Below are positions 6,011 to 53,823 of a DNA stretch of 64,000 bases, in pieces; position 1 is the stretch's first letter, and the number at the start of each line of letters is the position of its first letter. The position numbers and the translations under genes were made by a program. The notes under the pieces are model-generated. The model saw only the letters and a program-made list of their open reading frames with translations, did not search any database and was not told the origin of the DNA. The stretch covers positions 3,392,001-3,456,000 of the forward strand of contig OY969695.1 of the NCBI GenBank assembly GCA_963701965.1, given 5' to 3'. The stretch comes from an uncultured Gemmatimonadales bacterium. GTDB lineage: Bacteria > Gemmatimonadota > Gemmatimonadetes > Gemmatimonadales > Gemmatimonadaceae.

Positions 6011-6700
6011 TTAGCGCCGCAGCGCCAGCGAGAACGTGTCCCCTTGTCGCGGGACCCGTCGCCCTTGGTACATCGGGACCTGTTCCCCGGCCCGATGGTG
6101 GTAAATGACGATGCGTCGGGCGTCGACTCGCTTGCCAATCTTCATGAACGCCTTGAGTTGCCACGGTGTCACGAAGGCGACGTCCAGATCGGTTTGGCTG
6201 GCCAACGCCTGGATGTCATCGGTGTCGCCCGGGAAATAGAACCTGAGGCCGTGCCAGACCACGAGATACGAGTAGTGTTCGATCGTCCCGTGCGGAGTCC
6301 GGAAGGGCGTTATCGTGATGCCCTCATAGGTCATCTCCGGCGCGAACGGGATCTTGCGGGGCGTATCCAAGGTGGCCACGAGAGACGGAGGGGCCACGAT
6401 CGCGAAGTGCGTCGCTGAAAACAGAGTCGGGCTGAAGTGATCGGCGTGGCCATGCGTGATGAGACAGAGGACGTTGCCGCCTCGGGGGATCTTGCCGGCA
6501 TCGTACGTCATGTAGCCGAATGCGCCCGACTCGTAGGGGAAGTCAGTCAGCAGCGTGGTAGTGCCGTCGCTGATGTGGAAGGCTTCGTTGCCAATGAACT
6601 CGAAGACGAGACTGTCGGGCGGCGGCGCCGCGTGTAGCAGGCGTGGCACCACGAGAAGGAATGCCAACAGCTTCGGGACGAGTCCCTGCCATGCTCGCAT
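6011..6700 (-). CDS. Secreted MBL-fold metallo-hydrolase
   Basis: Signal peptide, THGHADH, YFPGDT. Confidence 0.8.
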   Translation of the reverse strand: MRAWQGLVPKLLAFLLVVPRLLHAAPPPDSLVFEFIGNEAFHISDGTTTLLTDFPYESGAFGYMTYDAGKIPRGGNVLCLITHGHADHFSPTLFSATHFAIVAPPSLVATLDTPRKIPFAPEMTYEGITITPFRTPHGTIEHYSYLVVWHGLRFYFPGDTDDIQALASQTDLDVAFVTPWQLKAFMKIGKRVDARRIVIYHHRAGEQVPMYQGRRVPRQGDTFSLALRR

Positions 6701-6782
6701 AGGTGTGGTGTCTCACCGATCGTTGACTATTGCCACCAAGCAGGGATGGAACCCTTGGAACCCGGGCCGGTTCCAACTCGGT

Positions 6783-9002
6783 ATGCCCATCCGGCCGTCA
6801 TACCGCGCGGCGGGAGCAGCCGCGTGCGCCCTCTTCGCGCTGTACGTGGCGACTTTGCTCCCGTCGACCGCGATGTGGGACACGAGCGAGTACCTGACGG
6901 CGGCCCACGTGCTCGGGATCCCGCACCCGCCGGGGAACCCGTTCTTCGTCCTCATCGGCCACGTCTTCTCCCTGCTGCCCGTCGCGCCCACCATCGCGCA
7001 ACGCGTCAACCTGATGGCCGCGCTCACCAGCGCACTCTCGGCCGGCGCCTGGTTTCTGGTCACCGAACGCGTCCTCGCGCACTGGCTGCCGAAACCGTGG
7101 CAACGGCTGGCCGGCGCCACCGTGGCGGTCCTTGTCGGCGGCACGGCTTTCACGGTCTGGAGCCAATCCGTCGTCAACGAAAAGGTCTACACGGTCTCAC
7201 TCCTGTTCTTCGCGATCGTCGCCTGGCTCGTCATCCTGTGGTCGGACGACCCGGATGCCCCAGGCGCCGAGCGACTCCTCGTCCTCAGCGTTTTCCTGAT
7301 CGCCCTCGGCTACACCAACCACCCCGCGGGCTTCCTCGTCGCTCCTGCCGTCGCGGTCGCGATCCTCGCCCGCCGCGCGCGCCTGCTCGTCGATCCCCGC
7401 TTCCTCGGCAAATGCGCCGCCGTGTTCGCGCTCGGCCTCACGCCTTTTCTGTTCGAGCCCATCCGCGCCGGCAACCTCCCGGCGCTCAACGAAGGCGAAA
7501 CGACGGCCTGCACGACCCACTTCGCGTGGAACTGCACGCTGACGCCTGAGACCTGGGACCGGTTCCGCGACCAAGTCACGCGCAAACAATACGGCGGCCA
7601 TGAGCTCGTGGAGCGGCAAGCGCCGTTCACCGGCCAGATCGCGATGTACTGGATGTACTTCAAGTGGCAGTGGATGCGCGACGTCACTGGCGCGCACCCC
7701 GGACTCCAGAGCGGCCTCGCCGCGCTCTTCCTGATGCTCGCGCTTCTCGGCGGCTACGCGCACTGGCGACACGACCGGGCCAGCTTCTGGTTTTTCGGGT
7801 CACTCGTGTTCACCGTGACGCTGGCGCTCGTCTACTATCTCAACTTCAAGTACGGCTACTCCCAGGACCCGTCGCTCGGCGAACGCGAAGTCCGCGACCG
7901 CGACTATTTCTACCTGTGGAGCTTCAGCGCGATGAGCGTCTGGATCGCGCTCGGCCTCGTCACACTATGGGAAACCTGTGCAACGCTCCGCGTTGCCAGG
8001 TCCCCAGTCGGTTGGACAGATCTCGGCTCCGCCCAGATCCTGGGCGCCGGTCGCCGTTGGCTCGCGGCTTCGCCGGTGCTGCTCCTCGCCGGCGTGCCGT
8101 TCGTCGCCAACTTCCACGCTGCCCCGCGCGCCGAGCAGGTCGTCACCCGCGATGTCGCCATCGACCTCCTGAACTCGGTGGAACCCTACGGCATTCTGGT
8201 CACCGGCGGCGACAATGATCTCTTCCCGCTCTGGTACGCCCAGGAGGTAGAAGGCGTCCGGCGCGACGTGCTGTGCGTCACCACGTCGCTGCTCGGCACC
8301 GAGTGGTACGCCGGGCAGCTGCTCCGGCGTCCGGTGTACCCGTACGACGCGGCGCACGGACCCGCGGCCTATCGCGGCCGCCTGTGGCCCAAGCCCACCC
8401 GGCCGCTGTTCACGATGTCGCTTGCCGACACCCGACACGTGCCGGACTTCGTGCCGCTGGCCCAGGCGGTGACGTTCCACAAGCCCGGCACCGCCCTCGT
8501 CGCCACGGTGGATCCGAAACGATTGCCATTCGGCGGCCTGACCCGCGCCAATGTGTTCGTGCTGCACATGATCGCCGACGGCAGCGAACGGCCCGTCTAC
8601 ATCAGCACGACCTATGGGAACTACGGATCGACGCTGGGCTTGGACTCGCATCTCCTCACGCAGGGGTTCGCTCGCAAGGTCGTCGACGACACGCCCGTCG
8701 CCACGCGCGACACGGTCATGGTGCCCAGCGACGGATGGATGGACACCAGCCGCTCCAACGCGCTGTGGCGCGAGGCGCGCGGACCGGCGACGATCGTCCG
8801 GCATACCGGCTGGAGCGATCCCGCGTCGGTGGGCATGCCGTTGCTCTACGTGTTCCGTGGCTACGCGCTGGCCGAGGCCCTGTCAGTCCGGCACGAGCCT
8901 GGCGACGACCAGCAGGTCAACGCCGTCATGCAACAGCTTCATGGTATGGCCAACGCCCTGGGCGCGAACGATCTGTTTTCTCCACGGGCCAGCAGTCGCT
9001 GA
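6783..9002 (+). CDS. DUF2723 / TMEM260-like membrane glycosyltransferase
   Basis: WDTSEY..LGIPHPPGNPFF, EVRDRDYFY, GDNDLFPLWYAQEVEGVRRDV, many transmembrane segments. Confidence 0.85.
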   Translation: MPIRPSYRAAGAAACALFALYVATLLPSTAMWDTSEYLTAAHVLGIPHPPGNPFFVLIGHVFSLLPVAPTIAQRVNLMAALTSALSAGAWFLVTERVLAHWLPKPWQRLAGATVAVLVGGTAFTVWSQSVVNEKVYTVSLLFFAIVAWLVILWSDDPDAPGAERLLVLSVFLIALGYTNHPAGFLVAPAVAVAILARRARLLVDPRFLGKCAAVFALGLTPFLFEPIRAGNLPALNEGETTACTTHFAWNCTLTPETWDRFRDQVTRKQYGGHELVERQAPFTGQIAMYWMYFKWQWMRDVTGAHPGLQSGLAALFLMLALLGGYAHWRHDRASFWFFGSLVFTVTLALVYYLNFKYGYSQDPSLGEREVRDRDYFYLWSFSAMSVWIALGLVTLWETCATLRVARSPVGWTDLGSAQILGAGRRWLAASPVLLLAGVPFVANFHAAPRAEQVVTRDVAIDLLNSVEPYGILVTGGDNDLFPLWYAQEVEGVRRDVLCVTTSLLGTEWYAGQLLRRPVYPYDAAHGPAAYRGRLWPKPTRPLFTMSLADTRHVPDFVPLAQAVTFHKPGTALVATVDPKRLPFGGLTRANVFVLHMIADGSERPVYISTTYGNYGSTLGLDSHLLTQGFARKVVDDTPVATRDTVMVPSDGWMDTSRSNALWREARGPATIVRHTGWSDPASVGMPLLYVFRGYALAEALSVRHEPGDDQQVNAVMQQLHGMANALGANDLFSPRASSR
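7973..8039 (+). repeat. Two-hairpin palindromic element, in-frame copy inside DUF2723 gene
   Basis: ACCTGTGCAACGCTCCGCGTTGCCAGGTCCCCAGTCGGTTGGACAGATCTCGGCTCCGCCCAGATC aligns with the unit of the 15070-15600 array. Confidence 0.85.
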
Positions 9003-15004: not shown

Positions 15005-15069
15005 TGCCGCCTCCGTGGAAGAGCGCTGTGGTCTGGTATGCGCCCTACCTACGCCGCTCATCGCACCGC

Positions 15070-15600
15070 GGATCTGTGCGATGCTTCGCATTGCCAGATC
15101 CGTCGTCGGTTGGACAGATCTCGGCTGCGCCGAGATCCCGCGATGCTTCACGTCGCCAGATCCGTCGTCGGTTGGACAGATCTCGGCTGCGCCGAGATCC
15201 CGCGATGCTTCACGTCGCCAGATCCGTCGTCGGTTGGACAGATCTGGGCTGCGCCGAGATCCCGCGATGCTTCACGTCGCCAGATCCGTCGTCGGTTGGA
15301 CAGATCTCGGCTGCGCCGAGATCCCGCGATGCTTCACGTCGCCAGATCCGTCGTCGGTTGGACAGATCTGGGCTGCGCCGAGATCCCGCGATGCTTCACG
15401 TCGCCAGATCCGTCGTCGGTTGGACAGATCTGGGCTGCGCCGAGATCCCGCGCCGCTTCACGTCGCCAGGATCCGTCGTCGGGTTGGACAGATCTCGGCT
15501 GCGCCGAGATCCCGCGATGCTTCACGTCGCCAGATCACGCGTCCGTTGGACCTATCCCAACTCCGCCGAGATCTCGCAATGCGAAGCGTTGCTGAGATCC
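15070..15600 (+). repeat. Tandem array of a 62-bp palindromic unit (7 near-identical copies, 1 degenerate copy, partial flanks)
   Basis: Unit GCCAGATCCGTCGTCGGTTGGACAGATCTSGGCTGCGCCGAGATCCCGCGATGCTTCACGTC starts at 15093, 15155, 15217, 15279, 15341, 15403, 15465 (64 bp) and 15529 (degenerate). No variable spacers. Confidence 0.97.
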
Positions 15601-15628
15601 GTTGGCGCGCGACCATTGTATCGAGACG

Positions 15629-19349: not shown

Positions 19350-19431
19350 CGCCTAGAGCTCCGCGCAGCGGAGCTCAGTTCAACCGACAATGCCCTAGCG
19401 GGGGTGCGTTCTTCAGCACCCCGCTAGGGCA
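19350..19431 (-). repeat. 82-bp two-hairpin element starting at the CocE stop codon
   Basis: Reverse complement TGCCCTAGCGGGGTGCTGAAGAACGCACCCCCGCTAGGGCATTGTCGGTTGAACTGAGCTCCGCTGCGCGGAGCTCTAGGCG matches 53742-53823. Confidence 0.85.
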
Positions 19432-26491: not shown

Positions 26492-26820
26492 GCCCGAGAT
26501 GTAGTCGTAATCCACGAACGAGCGCCCGGCGATAATTCGTCGCAGGCGGCACTGTCCTCTCAGCCACGGCCCGAGAGGCCATGGTGATCCACCAACGAGC
26601 ACGGCGACACTTCGTGGCAGGCGGGTTGTCCTCTCAGCCACAGCCCGAGAGCTCATGGTGATCCACCAACGAGAGCACGGCGACAATTCGTAGCAGGCGG
26701 CGTTGTCCACTCGGTTTTCAGCCCGAGATGCAGCTGTAATTCACGAACGAGCGCCCGGCGATAATTCGTCGCAGGCGGCCTGCTGTACCGAGACGCCGGA
26801 GACGAATTATCGCCGGGCGC
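26492..26820. repeat. Degenerate tandem repeat (4 units, about 74-80 bp) with terminal inverted repeat
   Basis: Units begin GCCCGAGA at 26492, 26569, 26643 and 26721. GCGCCCGGCGATAATTCGTC (26751-26770) is inverted at 26801-26820. Confidence 0.85.
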
Positions 26821-34803: not shown

Positions 34804-36652
34804 ATGGTGTCGACGGCGACCACCGCGGGCGAGAAGCTGCCCCTGCGCGAGAAGATCAGAGTGCTGCGCTACTTGCCGCAGCTGCTCGGACTCGTGTGGG
34901 AAACCCATCGGTGGTACGCCACGACGATGATCGCGCTCCGCCTCCTGCGCTCCGTCGTGCCGGTCGCGTCGCTGTGGGTCGCGAAGCTGATCATCGACGC
35001 CGTGATTCAGGCGGCCGCCGGGCACGGCACGCAGCGCCTCTGGGATTACGTGGCCGCCGAGTTCGTGATCGTCCTCCTCGGCGAGGTCCTGGCCCGCGGC
35101 TCGGCGCTGGTTGAATCCCTGCTCGGCGACCTTTTCTCGAACCACATCAGCGTGCGCCTCATGGAGCACGCGGCGACGCTCGATCTGGAGCAGTTCGAGG
35201 ACCCGACGTTCTACGACCATCTGGAACGGGCCAGACAGCAGACTACCGGGCGGATTGGGCTGGTCGCCCAACTCCTCGGCCTGGGCCAGGACGCGCTGAC
35301 GCTGGTGACGCTCGGCGGGGCACTGGTCGCCTACAATCCGTGGCTCCTGCTCCTGCTGACCGTCGCCGTGTTGCCCAGCTTCGTCGGCGAGACGCATTTC
35401 GCGGCGCTCAGCTACTCGCTGCTGTGGCGCCGGACGCCGGAGCGGCGGGAGCTGGACTACCTGCGATATGTCGGGGCTAGCGACGAGACCGCGAAAGAGG
35501 TCCAGAATGTTCGGGCTGGCGTCGTGGCTCACGTCCCGGTATCGGCGCTTGTCGCGGCAATACTACGAGGAAAACGCGCGACTCTCGGTCCGCCGCGCCA
35601 TCGTCAGCGCGCTCCTGTCCGTGGTGGGCACGATCGGGTACTACGCCGCCTATGTGGTGATCTTGTTGCGGGCGGTCGCCGGGCAGCTCAGCATCGGGAC
35701 GTTGACGTTCCTGGCGGGCGCGTTCATGCGGAGCCGCGACCTGATTCAGCGCCTCCTGTTGTCGGCCAGCGACATCTACGCGCAAAGTCTCAATCTGCAG
35801 GATCTCTTCACGTTCTTTGCCATGCAGCCGACGATCGCCACCCGTCCCGGCGCGCGGCCGGTCCCGATGCCGTTTGGCACGGGGTTCGTGTTCGAGGATG
35901 TCGGCTTTCGGTATCCAGGGAGCGAGCGGTGGGCCGTCCGCCACGTGAGCTTTACGCTGCGTCCCGGCGAACGGGTGGCGCTGGTGGGCGAGAATGGCGC
36001 GGGCAAGACGACGATTACGAAGTTGATCGCGCGCCTCTATGATCCGAGCGAGGGGCGTATCCTGCTCAATGGCGTCGATCTCCGGGAGTACGATCTTTCG
36101 TCGCTCCGTCGGGCCATCGGCGTGATCTTCCAGGATTTTGTCCGCTACGACATGCGGTTCGACGAGAACATCGGCGTGGGCGAAATCGAGGCGTCGCGCA
36201 CGTATCTGGAAAACCACGGACCGGTCCCGGCGCCCATCGCCGACGCGTCGGAGCGGTCGCTGGCGGCCACGCTGCTTCCCCGGCTGGCGCAGGGGTATCG
36301 TCAAATGCTGGGCCGCCGGTTCGATCAGGGCGTCGATCTGTCTGGTGGCGAGTGGCAGAAGGTCGCGCTGGCCCGGGCCTACATGCGGACGGCGCAGCTC
36401 TTGATTCTCGATGAGCCGACGGCCGCGCTCGACGCGCGGGCCGAGTACGAGGTGTTTCTCCGGTTCTCGGAACTGATGGCGGGTCGCATGGCGGTCATCA
36501 TCTCCCACCGGTTCTCGACCGTGCGCATGGCCGACCGCATCATCGTCCTTGCGGACGGCCGGGTGGTCGAAGAAGGGTCGCACGACGAGTTGGTGGCTCG
36601 CGGGGCGCAGTACGCCGAGCTGTTCGAGATGCAGGCGTCGGGCTATCGCTAG
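34804..36652 (+). CDS. ABC transporter fused permease/ATPase; +1 frameshift near 35506
   Basis: AKEVQ-MFGL restored by removing one A from CAGAATG; GENGAGKT, LSGGEWQK, ILDEPT. Confidence 0.9.
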
Positions 36653-36709
36653 ATCGCGGCGACGCCGCGATCAGTCGAACCGACCGGCTTTAGCGGCACG
36701 AAGTGGCGC

Positions 36710-37406
36710 CTAAAGCTCAATATGAACCATCCAACCGAATAACAGCGAATAAAAAGTACCGCCAACCGCGTTGCACGCCTCGCGCGTGTGAATCGCGCTG
36801 CGTGGTCCGAACACCGGCGCCCCGTGGTCGGTCTCCGTCCAGCGCGACCGTTGGTCACGCGGCGGGATGCAGAATGTCGACGTGCTCGTGCCACTGGGCG
36901 AGACCCACGGGCACGCGCGCGTTCAAGTCGCGCTCCGACGCCGATCGCGGCGCCGTGTACATCGCCCCGACGAGCGTCCACGTGCTATCGGCGTTCTGGC
37001 GATAGAGCAGGGACGTCGGCTTGGCCGGGTCGAAGCGAAACGCCGCGTTGATGGCCCAGGCCCGCCTCGTATAGTGGTAGATGGGCTGCTTGACGTTCGG
37101 CAGAAACGGGCGGAACCCATCGGCCTCGGCGACCGCGATGTCCCGATATTTGGCCACGGCGTTGCGCAGGGTCGCCCGGATCCCGACCATGCGGGCGGAA
37201 TCCGTTGCCGTCGGCACACCGGGCGCGGTCATCCGCATGTGCAGCGCACCGGCGGCGCCTTCCATGTGCATGTCATGCATGTCGCTCATGGCCGCATCCG
37301 TCATGTGCATGTCGCTCATGGCGGAGTCCGTGGGCTCGGGCGCTTGCGCGCCCGCGGCCAGCGACCACACGAGGGCCGAGGCCAGCCCCATCGCAATCCT
37401 GCGCAT
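36710..37406 (-). CDS. Secreted hypothetical protein with Met/His-rich N-terminus; +1 frameshift near 36873
   Basis: Removing one base extends WHEHVD into ICIPPRDQ..ACNAVGGTFYSLLFGWMVHIEL*, giving a 696-nt frame. Confidence 0.75.
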
Positions 37407-43400: not shown

Positions 43401-43424
43401 ACCCGACTATACGCCGTCTCGGTC

Positions 43425-44852
43425 ATGAACGCTACGCGCGTGCTTTTGGCATCGCTGGCACTGGGCCTCCTGCCCGGGTGCAGTGGGCACAGCATGCACG
43501 CTTGTGTGTTGCTGCGGATCGCCGAGATGGGCCGCTGCGGTTTCGTTCGAGTCTACGAGAACCGCGCCCGTGCCGCGGGCCGGCAGATCGATCTCCGCGT
43601 GGTTGTCCTCCGCGCCCGCGGGCGCGAGGTGCTGCCCGACCCGATCGTCTTTCTCACCGGTGGGCCGGGCCTGGGAGCCGCCGAGGACGTCCGCTTCGCC
43701 GCGCGCGCCTTTCGCGCCTTCCGGCGCTACCAGGACGTGGTCTTGGTCGACCAACGCGGGACGGGACGCTCGGCGCCGCTCGACTGCGATCTGTACGGCG
43801 GTGGCGGCCTGCAGCCGTATCTCGATCCGACATTTCCCGCGCCACGCGTGAACGCCTGTCTCCATAAGCTCGAGGGTCGCCTGGATCCCGGCGCAGCCGG
43901 GATCAGTTCAACCGACACGGGATCTCGCGACGCGGAGCGTCACCGAGATCTGACGCAGTACACGACGGCCGTGGCGATGGACGACCTGGCCCAAGTCTTG
44001 ACGACCCTGGGCTACGGACAGGCCGATATCATCGGGGTCTCCTACGGCACCCGCGCCGCGCTCGTCTTTCTGCGCCGTCACCCGGACCGAGTGCGCACGG
44101 TGACCGCCGTGAGCGTGGTCCCGCCGGGCAAGCCGATCATGCTCGCCGCGCCGCGTGCCACGGCGCGGGCGCTCGCGGCGGCGGGCGCTAGCCAGGAAAT
44201 CGACACGCTCATGGCGCGCCTCCGTCGGGCGCCGGTCAGGGTGACGCTCTGGAATTGGCGCCGCCTCCGCCGGGAGACGGTCACGATCGGCCCGCGGGGT
44301 TTCGCCGAGCGCGTGTTCTCGTTGTTCTACAGCGCGTCCAGCGGGCGTCACGTCGTGCCCCTCCTGCGTCAGGCCATCGCCGGCGACTGGACCCCGTTCG
44401 CCCGGGTGGCGCTCGCCGAGAGTCGCGCCCGCCGGAGCGACCGGAGCGTGGGCATGACGCTCTCCGTCCTCTGCGCCGAGGACGCGCCGCGCTTCGCGGG
44501 TGTAGACACGGCAGCGCTCGCGGCGCAAAGCCCCCTGGGTCTCCCCGTAGCTGGAGAGCTATTGACCGCCTGCGCCGACTGGCCGCGAGGCCCGGTCGAT
44601 AGCGCGCCCTCCGGACTGACGCCACCCGTCCTCTTCGTGTCCGGCGCGCTCGATCCGGCCACCCCTCCCGAATGGGCTGACTCCGTCTCAGCGCAGCTCC
44701 CCAACAGCGCGACGATCGTCGTCCCCGGCGCCGGTCACTCGCCGGGCAATGAGGCGACGCTCGACCGCATCGCGTCCTTCGTGCGCAGTGCCCATATTCC
44801 GGAATGCCGGACCCCAGAGTCCTGCACGAGCAGGCCGAACGCGACAAAGTAA
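43425..44852 (+). CDS. Alpha/beta hydrolase lipoprotein (TAP-like peptidase)
   Basis: LPGC lipobox, GGPG, DQRGTGRS, GVSYG, DPATP, GAGH. Confidence 0.88.
   Translation: MNATRVLLASLALGLLPGCSGHSMHACVLLRIAEMGRCGFVRVYENRARAAGRQIDLRVVVLRARGREVLPDPIVFLTGGPGLGAAEDVRFAARAFRAFRRYQDVVLVDQRGTGRSAPLDCDLYGGGGLQPYLDPTFPAPRVNACLHKLEGRLDPGAAGISSTDTGSRDAERHRDLTQYTTAVAMDDLAQVLTTLGYGQADIIGVSYGTRAALVFLRRHPDRVRTVTAVSVVPPGKPIMLAAPRATARALAAAGASQEIDTLMARLRRAPVRVTLWNWRRLRRETVTIGPRGFAERVFSLFYSASSGRHVVPLLRQAIAGDWTPFARVALAESRARRSDRSVGMTLSVLCAEDAPRFAGVDTAALAAQSPLGLPVAGELLTACADWPRGPVDSAPSGLTPPVLFVSGALDPATPPEWADSVSAQLPNSATIVVPGAGHSPGNEATLDRIASFVRSAHIPECRTPESCTSRPNATK
43884..43950 (-). repeat. Two-hairpin palindromic element, in-frame copy inside hydrolase gene
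   Basis: Reverse complement GATCTCGGTGACGCTCCGCGTCGCGAGATCCCGTGTCGGTTGAACTGATCCCGGCTGCGCCGGGATC; bounded by GATC at 43884 and 43947, 63 bp apart. Confidence 0.88.
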
Positions 44853-52914: not shown

Positions 52915-53748
52915 ATGAAAACACGCCTGTGGTTGGTACTTGCGAGTCTCGCTCTGTCACATGTGGCATTGGCGCAGGACAGTTTTTGGACGACCTGGGA
53001 AAAGACGGCGTCCGCAATCCAAGCGGAGCAACCGCACTGGGCCACGCCGCTCGTCACGGTGACGCCGCGGATGGAGCAGGAGTTCCGGTTCGACTACGTG
53101 TCGCGGTTCACGCCCGCCGGACTCAACACGTCGATCTACGACAACGGCAAAGGTCTCGAGCTCATCCCTTTGCTGCCGATCGAGCTGCTGATCAACCTGC
53201 CACCGTACACGGTCCATCGAAACCCAAAAGCGCCCGACGGCTGGGGCGACTGGCCACTCCTGCTCAAGGTCCGTCTCCTCTCAGCGAACGAGCAGAAGGG
53301 CAACTATCTGCTCACGCTCTTCCTCGGCGGCACGGTGCCCACCGGCGGGCATCTCAACGGCAACGGATTCGGCCTGTTCTCACCCTCGATTGCCGGCGGC
53401 AAGGGCTTTGGCGACTTCGACGTGCAAACGACGGCGGGTTTCAATATTCCGGTGACCAGCGAGCCGAAGTTTGGGCACCCATTCCTCTACAACGTCGCGC
53501 TGCAATACCACATTCCCGAGGCCTTCCTGTGGCCGGAAGTGGAGATGAACGGCACGGCGTGGCGCGACGGGACGAATCTCGGCAACAACCAGATCTTCAT
53601 TACTCCTGGTGTCGTTCTCGGGCGGTTTCCGCTCCACGCGCTCTACAATCGCTTAGGGCTCACATTCGGCGCTGGCATTCAGATCGCCGCCACGCACTTC
53701 CATCAGTATGATCACGCGTGGACGTTCACCGCGCGCATGCCGTTTTAG
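52915..53748 (+). CDS. Secreted or outer-membrane hypothetical protein
   Basis: Signal peptide, QPHWATPLVTVTPRMEQEFRFD, amphipathic strands, C-terminal Phe. Confidence 0.7.
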   Translation: MKTRLWLVLASLALSHVALAQDSFWTTWEKTASAIQAEQPHWATPLVTVTPRMEQEFRFDYVSRFTPAGLNTSIYDNGKGLELIPLLPIELLINLPPYTVHRNPKAPDGWGDWPLLLKVRLLSANEQKGNYLLTLFLGGTVPTGGHLNGNGFGLFSPSIAGGKGFGDFDVQTTAGFNIPVTSEPKFGHPFLYNVALQYHIPEAFLWPEVEMNGTAWRDGTNLGNNQIFITPGVVLGRFPLHALYNRLGLTFGAGIQIAATHFHQYDHAWTFTARMPF

Positions 53749-53823
53749 CACGGGGTGCTGAACTACGCACCCGTGCTAAAACTCGTCGGTTGAACTGAGC
53801 TCCGCTGCGCCGAGCTCTAGGCG
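53742..53823 (+). repeat. 82-bp two-hairpin element starting at the upstream gene's stop codon
   Basis: GTTTTAGCACGGGGTGCTGAACTACGCACCCGTGCTAAAACTCGTCGGTTGAACTGAGCTCCGCTGCGCCGAGCTCTAGGCG; matches 19350-19431. Confidence 0.85.

Follow-up and report, generated by a model that had tools for sequence, protein, structure and literature searches.

How does a gene for a conserved enzyme come to hold exactly 63 bp that start at one GATC, end at another and leave the reading frame open? The question is raised by a 64,000-nucleotide stretch of the genome of an uncultured Gemmatimonadales bacterium (contig OY969695.1, positions 3,392,001 to 3,456,000, assembly GCA_963701965.1), here called the window; positions up to 64,000 are counted in it, and seven-digit positions on the contig. 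The gene encodes a TAP/Hip1-type alpha/beta-hydrolase, and the two GATC (43884-43887 and 43947-43950) lie 63 bp apart and codon-aligned, 43884 being a first codon position. A first-pass annotation, made from the sequence without database searches, had described this in-frame GATC-to-GATC segment, and sequence and translation confirmed it. We consider it likely that the 63 bp are a repeat unit sitting in frame inside a gene that still looks functional. The features on which the argument rests are the following.

43425..44852, plus strand: gene for the TAP/Hip1-type alpha/beta-hydrolase, a predicted lipoprotein of 475 amino acids (Pfam, alignment)
43884..43950, plus strand: in-frame insert, one 63-bp repeat unit and the second GATC, residues about 153-178 of the hydrolase
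43884..43904, plus strand: hairpin 1 of the insert, 21 nucleotides (nt), 9-bp stem GATCCCGGC/GCCGGGATC, loop GCA (folds, covariation)
43906..43916, plus strand: invariant core GTTCAACCGAC, family consensus GTYCAACCGAC (alignment)
43921..43950, plus strand: hairpin 2, 30 nt, bulged stem of about 12 bp; ERHRD is encoded by the 3' arm, which has GATC at its end
44040..44042, plus strand: Ser209 codon in the GxSxG nucleophile elbow, GVSYG (invariant alignment column)
44652-44654, plus strand: Asp413 codon (invariant column)
44736-44738, plus strand: His441 codon (invariant column)

The insert and its host protein

The host frame translates as ...KLEGRLD-PGAAGISSTDTGSRDAERHRD-LTQY, and removal of the 63 bp gives ...RLDLTQY. 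Two further GATC lie inside the insert (43901-43904 and 43921-43924). Its exact 60-mer occurs once in the window, where shuffled sequence leads one to expect 0 matches. Against a covariance model of the repeat family (R1, built from 23 family members, with hits counted at E<=0.01), the copy scored 85.9 bits (E 7e-15).

Alignment of the protein to its homologs, proposed by the first-pass annotation as a check, gave the result expected there: the 21-residue segment before LTQY was missing from 30/30 homologs aligned with the query (61% down to 36% identity), which are gapped over 21-23 columns between well-conserved flanks (Cys148 on one side; D178, Y182 and T184 on the other). Within the genus, the orthologs of genomes G003 and G004 lack the segment and read ...LE(T/R)RAD|LT(Q/R)Y..., while the match to the G005 ortholog breaks at residues 152/174. 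A soil-metagenome contig from a relative reads ...LERRAD|LTQ... over the same junction, again with the insert absent. Judged by these alignments, the segment is lineage-specific, present in the query and missing from every homolog examined. The idea that the 21 residues were donated by a repeat is supported by this absence from 30/30 homologs and the G003, G004 and G005 orthologs, and by the membership of the 63 bp in a family of 88 units. As for the filled site, short-read contigs of two runs hold its junctions without differences; in the study that gave the relative's contig two others do so, among them one of 187 nt (43816-44002) that spans both junctions with 0 differences.

The open frame of the hydrolase starts at 43416 with a GTG that is also in frame, and the annotated ATG lies at 43425, giving 475 to 478 residues; an identical 475-residue protein is present in the protein database. 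A search of 5.8 billion proteins returned 1016 homologs, the best of them other than the protein itself being 58% identical. Pfam found Abhydrolase_1 (73 bits) and, at the C terminus, the TAP-like domain Abhydrolase_4 (56 bits), both above cut-off; with this core, this C-terminal domain and a conserved GxSxG/Asp/His set, the protein has the hallmarks of TAP-like alpha/beta hydrolases. Its N terminus, MNATRVLLASLALGLLPGC, with a nearly invariant Cys22, resembles a lipoprotein signal. The protein keeps all 45 columns that are invariant in a 31-sequence alignment, including G207, S209, G211, D413 and H441; by analogy with the alpha/beta-hydrolase family, Ser209, Asp413 and His441 form the presumed catalytic triad. 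The G+C content at third codon positions (GC3) is of coding type on both sides of the insert, 0.80 upstream and 0.90 downstream.

An AlphaFold2 model computed from the same 31-sequence alignment reached a mean predicted local distance difference test score (pLDDT) of 87.6 and a predicted template modelling score of 0.88, and the nearest solved folds in Foldseek were TnmK1/TnmK2 and Mycobacterium tuberculosis Hip1 (TnmK1 and Hip1 at E 1e-15 to 5e-19). Residues 153-178 were modelled as coil between helices 142-152 and 184-198, with a pLDDT of 55 over the block 161-170. On account of this coil state and low pLDDT between helices, the insert is predicted to be a disordered 21-residue loop in the excursion ahead of the pre-nucleophile helix; of the surface loop for which the first-pass annotation proposed to model the structure, it is the loop that the model predicts. 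We infer that the insert is translated and tolerated.

Several observations weigh against so simple a reading. The 63 bp can be placed in more than one register: MAFFT put the gap at EGRLDPGAAGISSTDTGSRDA, the first-pass annotation at PGAAG...ERHRD, each being 21 residues long, and the orthologs' ERRAD finds a likeness both in EGRLD just before the insert and in ERHRD at its end. The nearest homolog is only 58-61% identical, and the hydrolase gene has no empty site at the nucleotide level. The metagenome contigs that carry the junctions may derive from the genome's own source sample, and a search for RNA runs holding the stretch listed none.

The repeat family and the other genes that carry it

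The unit follows a simple plan, namely, hairpin 1 (9-bp stem, GCA loop), one base, the core GTYCAACCGAC, a spacer of 3-4 nt and hairpin 2, the two hairpins being oriented alike. Across 46 aligned copies, 94% of the cells of hairpin 1 are paired and 8/9 pairs show compensatory changes, a level reached by 0/500 shuffles; AACCG is constant in 46/46 of them, and the core has 79 exact matches genome-wide. In the 23 GATC-type copies (A-type), helix 2 is 91% paired with compensatory changes at 8/14 pairs, and both helices together are 93% paired with double changes at 12/23 pairs. The hydrolase copy itself folds into both hairpins, at -24.3 kcal/mol as DNA (z -3.3) and -40.4 kcal/mol as RNA (z -2.6). 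The A-type outer arms have the consensus GGATCYCGGCG / CGCCGRGATCC, and B-type copies combine a GAGCTC-type hairpin 1 and the same core with a different hairpin 2. None of the three sense frames of the unit contains a stop.

The genome, a single 5.12-Mb contig of 67% GC and Gemmatimonadaceae-like, holds 88 units by model R1, which merge into 57 loci. Matches were found in 5/5 genomes of the same genus (51, 12, 9, 7 and 4), in 1/31 genomes of other genera of the family and in 0/24 of two sister families, and scores above 73 bits are confined to this genome; by this sampling the repeat family is genus-restricted. The hydrolase copy is 0.93 identical to the A-type copy g2569791, 0.91 to g2667463, g2261597 and g1035590, and 0.90 to g2607486 and g2402458, and from these 90-93% identities the family looks young in the lineage. 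Rfam, run at gathering thresholds on the entire window, matched no family, and a literature search found no printed description. When a two-unit peptide was searched against the 5.8 billion proteins (longer-protein setting), it returned 2 proteins, both from this genome, which is weak evidence of absence elsewhere.

Tandem arrays are common, 13 being counted from core positions and model hits, and the merged model hits give 12 multi-unit loci among the 57. Away from clearly coding sequence, two arrays of 63-bp period, one with 7 units and one with 4, occupy 2607084-2607532 and 2274908-2275167; they are possible donors of the single-unit copies. We considered the 63-bp period as evidence of selection and rejected it: the coding arrays have periods of 63, 63 and 69 bp, but 5/10 of the other arrays also have a period divisible by three, so that the 63-bp length is a property of the A-type unit and not proof of selection.

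Every locus was then judged for a position inside a gene, defined as an open frame with coding-type composition (high GC3, low G+C at second positions) on both sides. Eleven loci with 14 units qualified, the hydrolase included, and 10/11 host genes (again counting the hydrolase) have Pfam domains above cut-off. The top strand of the element is the coding strand at 10/11 of these loci, and for 8/11 the insert is missing from same-genus orthologs. The host genes, with the number and orientation of the units and the basis of each call, are as follows.

TAP/Hip1-type alpha/beta hydrolase: 1 unit, sense; 30/30 homologs and the G003, G004 and G005 orthologs lack the insert
Pyruvate kinase: 1 unit, sense; 5/5 same-genus orthologs shorter by exactly 63 bp
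HisH-like class I glutamine amidotransferase: 2 units, sense; 5/5 ortholog matches split around the units, 4 aligned
SNF2 helicase: 1 unit, directly before DEAH, sense; absent from 4/4 orthologs found
Lhr helicase: 2 units of 69 bp, sense; absent from 5/5 orthologs
MBL-fold and rhodanese protein: 1 unit, sense; 5/5 same-genus orthologs shorter by exactly 63 bp
PD40/DPPIV-like protein: 1 unit, sense; absent from 4/4 orthologs found, with 87 extra nt here
TMEM260-like glycosyltransferase: 1 unit, reverse; four closest relatives (63-73% identity) lack 21-23 amino acids
VirD4/TraG-type coupling protein (2401500-2403116): 2 units followed by the beginning of a third, sense; Pfam domain geometry only
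Ada-AlkA fusion: 1 unit, sense; Pfam domain geometry only, ortholog matches being just 42-47% identical
Weak M15-like protein, below the Pfam cut-off: 1 unit, sense; GC3 test

Aligned to a solved enzyme, the pyruvate kinase insert falls in the lid domain. At the point of insertion in the TMEM260-like protein, four paralogs of 57-59% identity carry an unrelated loop of 16-17 residues. The coupling protein gene with its units implies an integrated conjugative element in that region, and A-type copies are densest at 2.26-2.73 Mb, where this gene lies.

The Lhr locus (2478527-2478672) consists of two 69-bp units and a partial one. Native coding sequence for RAARREI, also present in the orthologs, occurs there in triplicate, forming the 3' arm of hairpin 2, with its inverted complement as the 5' arm. 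This variant of hairpin 2 is found nowhere else in the genome and may have been built on, or corrected against, host sequence. At two other loci, where hairpin 2 is also locus-specific, its 3' arm shares an exact direct repeat with the left flank, 10-nt CAGTCCGCCT at 2397969-2398043 and 9-nt TACGCATAA at 5094840-5094910, and no decayed upstream unit is visible at either.

GATC and the movement of the unit

In five in-gene copies (hydrolase, pyruvate kinase, SNF2, HisH-like and MBL-rhodanese), all codon-aligned to orthologs with an extra length that is a whole number of 63-bp units, removal of the whole periods left sequence colinear with the orthologs. The restored sites read ...CTG GAT CTG... 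(D|L) in the hydrolase, ...CAG GAT CTC... in SNF2, ...GAG GAT CCT... in the amidotransferase, ...GAG ATC CCT... in pyruvate kinase and ...TTG AT(C/T) CCC... in the MBL protein, and the empty SNF2 site of G005 is GGT GAT CTG, GATC included. Among the ten sense in-gene loci, four read DPGAAGIS... (GAT|C) and six IPAQPGSV... (..G|ATC), and none uses the phase.GA|TC.; in 2483 crude coding open reading frames (ORFs), the same three phases of GATC number 8260, 18869 and 1558 (29%, 66% and 5%). Since the frame usage of 4/6/0 matches these codon phases, GATC is probably the insertion target, and since a GATC target predicts the frame usage, selection on the peptide need not be invoked. A caveat is that GATC forms the base of both hairpin stems, so that any whole-period insert is bounded by GATC by construction. 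The proposal that GATC is the target or crossover core thus gains support from the period removal, the SNF2 empty site and the frame usage, and falls short of proof.

The unit likely arrived by insertion adjoining a pre-existing GATC. How it moves can be stated as a tentative model, a strand-specific process of the REP (repetitive extragenic palindromic) or IS200/IS605 kind, in which a protein recognizing hairpin 1 and the tag GTYCAACCGAC would paste the unit 3' of GATC. The unit's own GATC end would then give rise to precise head-to-tail arrays, and 63 bp (21 codons) with stop-free sense frames would let most in-gene copies survive selection. A strand-specific process is suggested by the single-stranded tag beside a covarying hairpin, the like-oriented end hairpins and the precise arrays that share one GATC; the 10-to-1 sense orientation in genes is a hint in the same direction and no more than that. 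Reverse frames of the unit are open in 52/69 cases and forward frames in 63/69, so that stops explain the sense bias only in part. We prefer this strand-specific paste to the other mechanisms considered, yet regard it as no more than possible.

The searches for an enzyme tell against it. Y1_Tnp/RAYT (PF01797) gave 0 matches in this genome and in 0/5 same-genus genomes, whereas control genomes matched; TnpB (PF07282) gave 0 matches in the genome; and DUF559 (PF04480) gave one weak match, remote from any unit. When the ORFs within 3 kb of all 57 loci were clustered, no family recurred beyond chance, the recurring neighbors being pairs that resemble a two-component regulator and kinase in size and adjacency, at about chance level. 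As no mobilizing enzyme was found, the mechanism stays inferred. Element orientation showed no association with local GC skew (Fisher p 0.10 to 1.0); the cumulative GC skew of the genome has no clean V, and intergenic orientation is 11 versus 11 by a crude GC3 gene caller that covers 60% of the genome, a count not relied on. Some inserts also have a left flank that resembles the 3' arm of the unit itself, with which it agrees at 12/16 positions beside the hydrolase insert and at 8/9 in pyruvate kinase, and in Lhr native coding sequence apparently forms the 3' arm of hairpin 2. This likeness of flank and arm in the three genes fits homology-guided copying as well as transposition.

Such copying, in which a unit of an array would be copied into an arm-like site by gene conversion or by template switching with synthesis-dependent strand annealing, adding whole periods between chimeric direct repeats, seems to us rather unlikely, although several observations speak for it. 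Besides the hydrolase and pyruvate kinase flanks, the native PD40 and Lhr sites of relatives read ...GAGATT or ...GAAATT and resemble the end of the arm, the RAARREI sequence of Lhr is present three times as the 3' arm, and exact 10-nt and 9-nt flank/3'-arm repeats stand at two other loci. Inserts come in whole periods only, arrays are common and no transposase was found. The left flank also fits the 3' arm of its own locus better than those of other loci, the observed sum being reached by 0/2000 permutations, in a test that is confounded by subfamily structure. However, the SNF2, HisH-like and MBL sites have little beyond GATC in common with the arm, the combination of an invariant core with stems that covary is suggestive of a protein that recognizes them, and the Lhr-type hairpin 2 is without a donor elsewhere in the genome, so that simple copying does not explain Lhr.

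We find it unlikely that the unit is a miniature inverted-repeat transposable element on which a DDE transposase acts in trans, duplicating GATC as the 4-bp target site. In favor of this, the outer arms form inverted repeats (8/12 in the hydrolase copy), GATC stands as a direct repeat at both ends and B-type copies are often bounded by YTAG. Yet the left GATC pairs within hairpin 1 and is therefore part of the element; the stems belong to two separate hairpins and covary rather than keep one terminal sequence; it is unusual for cut-and-paste elements to form precise head-to-tail arrays in which units share one GATC; and within genes the orientations stand at 10 to 1. A search for a parent insertion sequence with such ends, not an exhaustive one, found none, and the arm-motif scan was uninformative, with 701 matches in coding sequence.

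An extension of the strand-specific paste model, improbable on present evidence, is a hairpin element without a transposase that would be read on one strand by a host or element-independent protein, and whose hairpin 2 could be rebuilt from the target flank. Such rebuilding is suggested by the Lhr arms taken from native sequence and by the exact 9-nt and 10-nt repeats at the two other loci. If true, each new site would serve the element as a partial template for its structure, and new peptide loops would be written into proteins in a preferred orientation.

Two further explanations concern the hydrolase gene alone. The decorated gene might be non-functional or untranslated through the insert, its frame being open just because the unit is 63 bp long and stop-free. 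The unit has three open sense frames, which makes an open frame weak evidence of selection, and no RNA run was listed. We nonetheless hold this to be quite improbable in view of the intact 475-residue frame, the coding-type GC3 on either side, the 45/45 invariant columns with Ser209, Asp413 and His441, the confident model outside the loop and the tolerance of a family unit in pyruvate kinase and other conserved genes. That the segment is instead a native lineage-specific loop or an assembly artifact is close to refuted: the oxyanion strand and the pre-nucleophile helix are linked here by a long excursion and the closest homolog is just about 60% identical, but the segment scores 85.9 bits against a model from other loci, is 90-93% identical to six loci and is lacking in 30/30 homologs, and short-read contigs of two runs hold the junctions without differences.

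Known palindromic repeats and the other copies in the window

In-frame palindromic repeats were reportedly first described in Rickettsia by Ogata and colleagues in 2000 and 2002 (Rickettsia palindromic elements, RPE). The first-pass annotation had named them as a precedent, correctly as an analogy of behavior, one that does not extend to membership in the RPE, CGTC or GTAG families. RPEs belong to Alphaproteobacteria whereas the present genome is Gemmatimonadota-like, and the comparison is one of behavior, not of sequence. Unlike RPEs, the present unit is 63 bp long, GATC-bounded and often arrayed head to tail, with two hairpins around an invariant 11-nt core. In REP/REPIN families, a hairpin and a short conserved single-stranded tag form the likely recognition unit and copies are mostly extragenic, and in the bacterial interspersed mosaic elements of Escherichia coli two hairpins are joined by a conserved linker. 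Both are matched here by a hairpin with a conserved tag, two hairpins with a conserved linker and mostly extragenic copies, and hairpins 1 and 2, at 21 and 30 nt, are REP-like stem-loop palindromes of 20-40 nt according to folds and covariation; in contrast to REP/REPIN systems, no RAYT (PF01797) was found in this genome or the 5 same-genus genomes. Palindrome-associated elements derived from IS200/IS605 have like-oriented subterminal hairpins of similar sequence at their two ends and insert 3' of a fixed tetranucleotide. The present family resembles them in the similar sequence and same orientation of its end hairpins and in apparent insertion 3' of a tetranucleotide that also stands at its right end, which would explain the precise arrays; it differs in that the genome has no TnpA (PF01797) or TnpB (PF07282) and in that the unit is far shorter.

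A further comparison is with the repeats treated by Di Nocera, De Gregorio and Rocco 2013, who generalized in-frame palindromic repeats beyond Rickettsia (PMC3733652). RPEs, like the present family, are small palindromic repeats found between genes and in frame in many unrelated conserved genes, where a short peptide is added and the host protein is not destroyed, and no dedicated transposase is known (PMC3733652). RPE-4 and RPE-6 end in a CGTC tag, whereas the present family has no CGTC next to its stems (PMC3733652). In the same text, GTAG- and CGTC-tagged REPs lie inside genes of several phyla, intragenic dimers encode 20-30 residues and hosts are often repair and helicase genes; a CGTC REP has the tag next to an 8-9-bp stem, a 4-5-nt loop and a short CCA-like tail, with no dedicated transposase and rare clusters (PMC3733652). 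Stems of 8-9 bp, dimers encoding 20-30 residues within ORFs and repair or helicase hosts (here Lhr, SNF2 and Ada-AlkA) are shared with the intragenic GTAG/CGTC REPs, and in-frame intragenic units (at 11 loci here) with no transposase found are shared with the CGTC REPs (PMC3733652). The differences lie in the loop of hairpin 1 (3 nt), in CGTC occurring only within the stem of hairpin 2 and not as a flanking tag, in the frequent tandem arrays, and in an 11-nt single-stranded tag between hairpins that point the same way and not head to head (PMC3733652). Nor does GTAG stand beside either stem in our alignments. With a tag and an architecture of its own, the family joins a class already known, that of palindromic repeats in frame within genes (RPE, intragenic REPs).

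In-frame palindromic repeats are one of the few routes by which selfish DNA creates protein sequence directly, and the present family is a compact case outside Rickettsia, in which one young 63-bp family has entered at least 11 genes, with clean empty sites in relatives for 8. The decorated genes include those of pyruvate kinase, two helicases, an amidotransferase and a repair protein. Its anatomy is simple and testable: GATC borders enclose two hairpins that covary and, between them, an invariant 11-nt tag. The lack of a recognizable transposase alongside it bears on the movement of "orphan" REP families such as the CGTC type. For annotation there is a warning, in that low-complexity loops of 21 residues in Gemmatimonadota proteins can be repeat-derived.

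In a search for repeats within the window, the insert proved related to copies at 19350, 36646 and 53785; a copy at 7976 and the 15016-15607 array are more distant. The extents of these copies are as follows.

7971..8041, minus strand: family copy, in frame in the TMEM260-like glycosyltransferase gene (open frame 6537-8999, plus strand); R1 80.6 bits
15016..15607, minus strand: tandem array between genes, with a period of 62 bp; 7 model hits and degenerate end units
19354..19430, plus strand: B-type copy, non-coding by the GC3 test (R1)
36650..36718, plus strand: divergent copy, intergenic, immediately after a stop codon (R1)
53746..53819, minus strand: B-type copy, intergenic (R1)

The TMEM260-like copy has coding-like GC3 on either side and reads ...CATLRVARSPVGWTDLGSAQI... 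in the protein. The period of the 15016-15607 array (62 bp), which is also delimited as 15069-15607, is indivisible by three, unlike that of the 63-bp in-gene units. Unrelated short repeats lie at 26492-26820, comprising three direct copies of ~59 nt, two of ~47 nt and an inverted pair of 34 nt.

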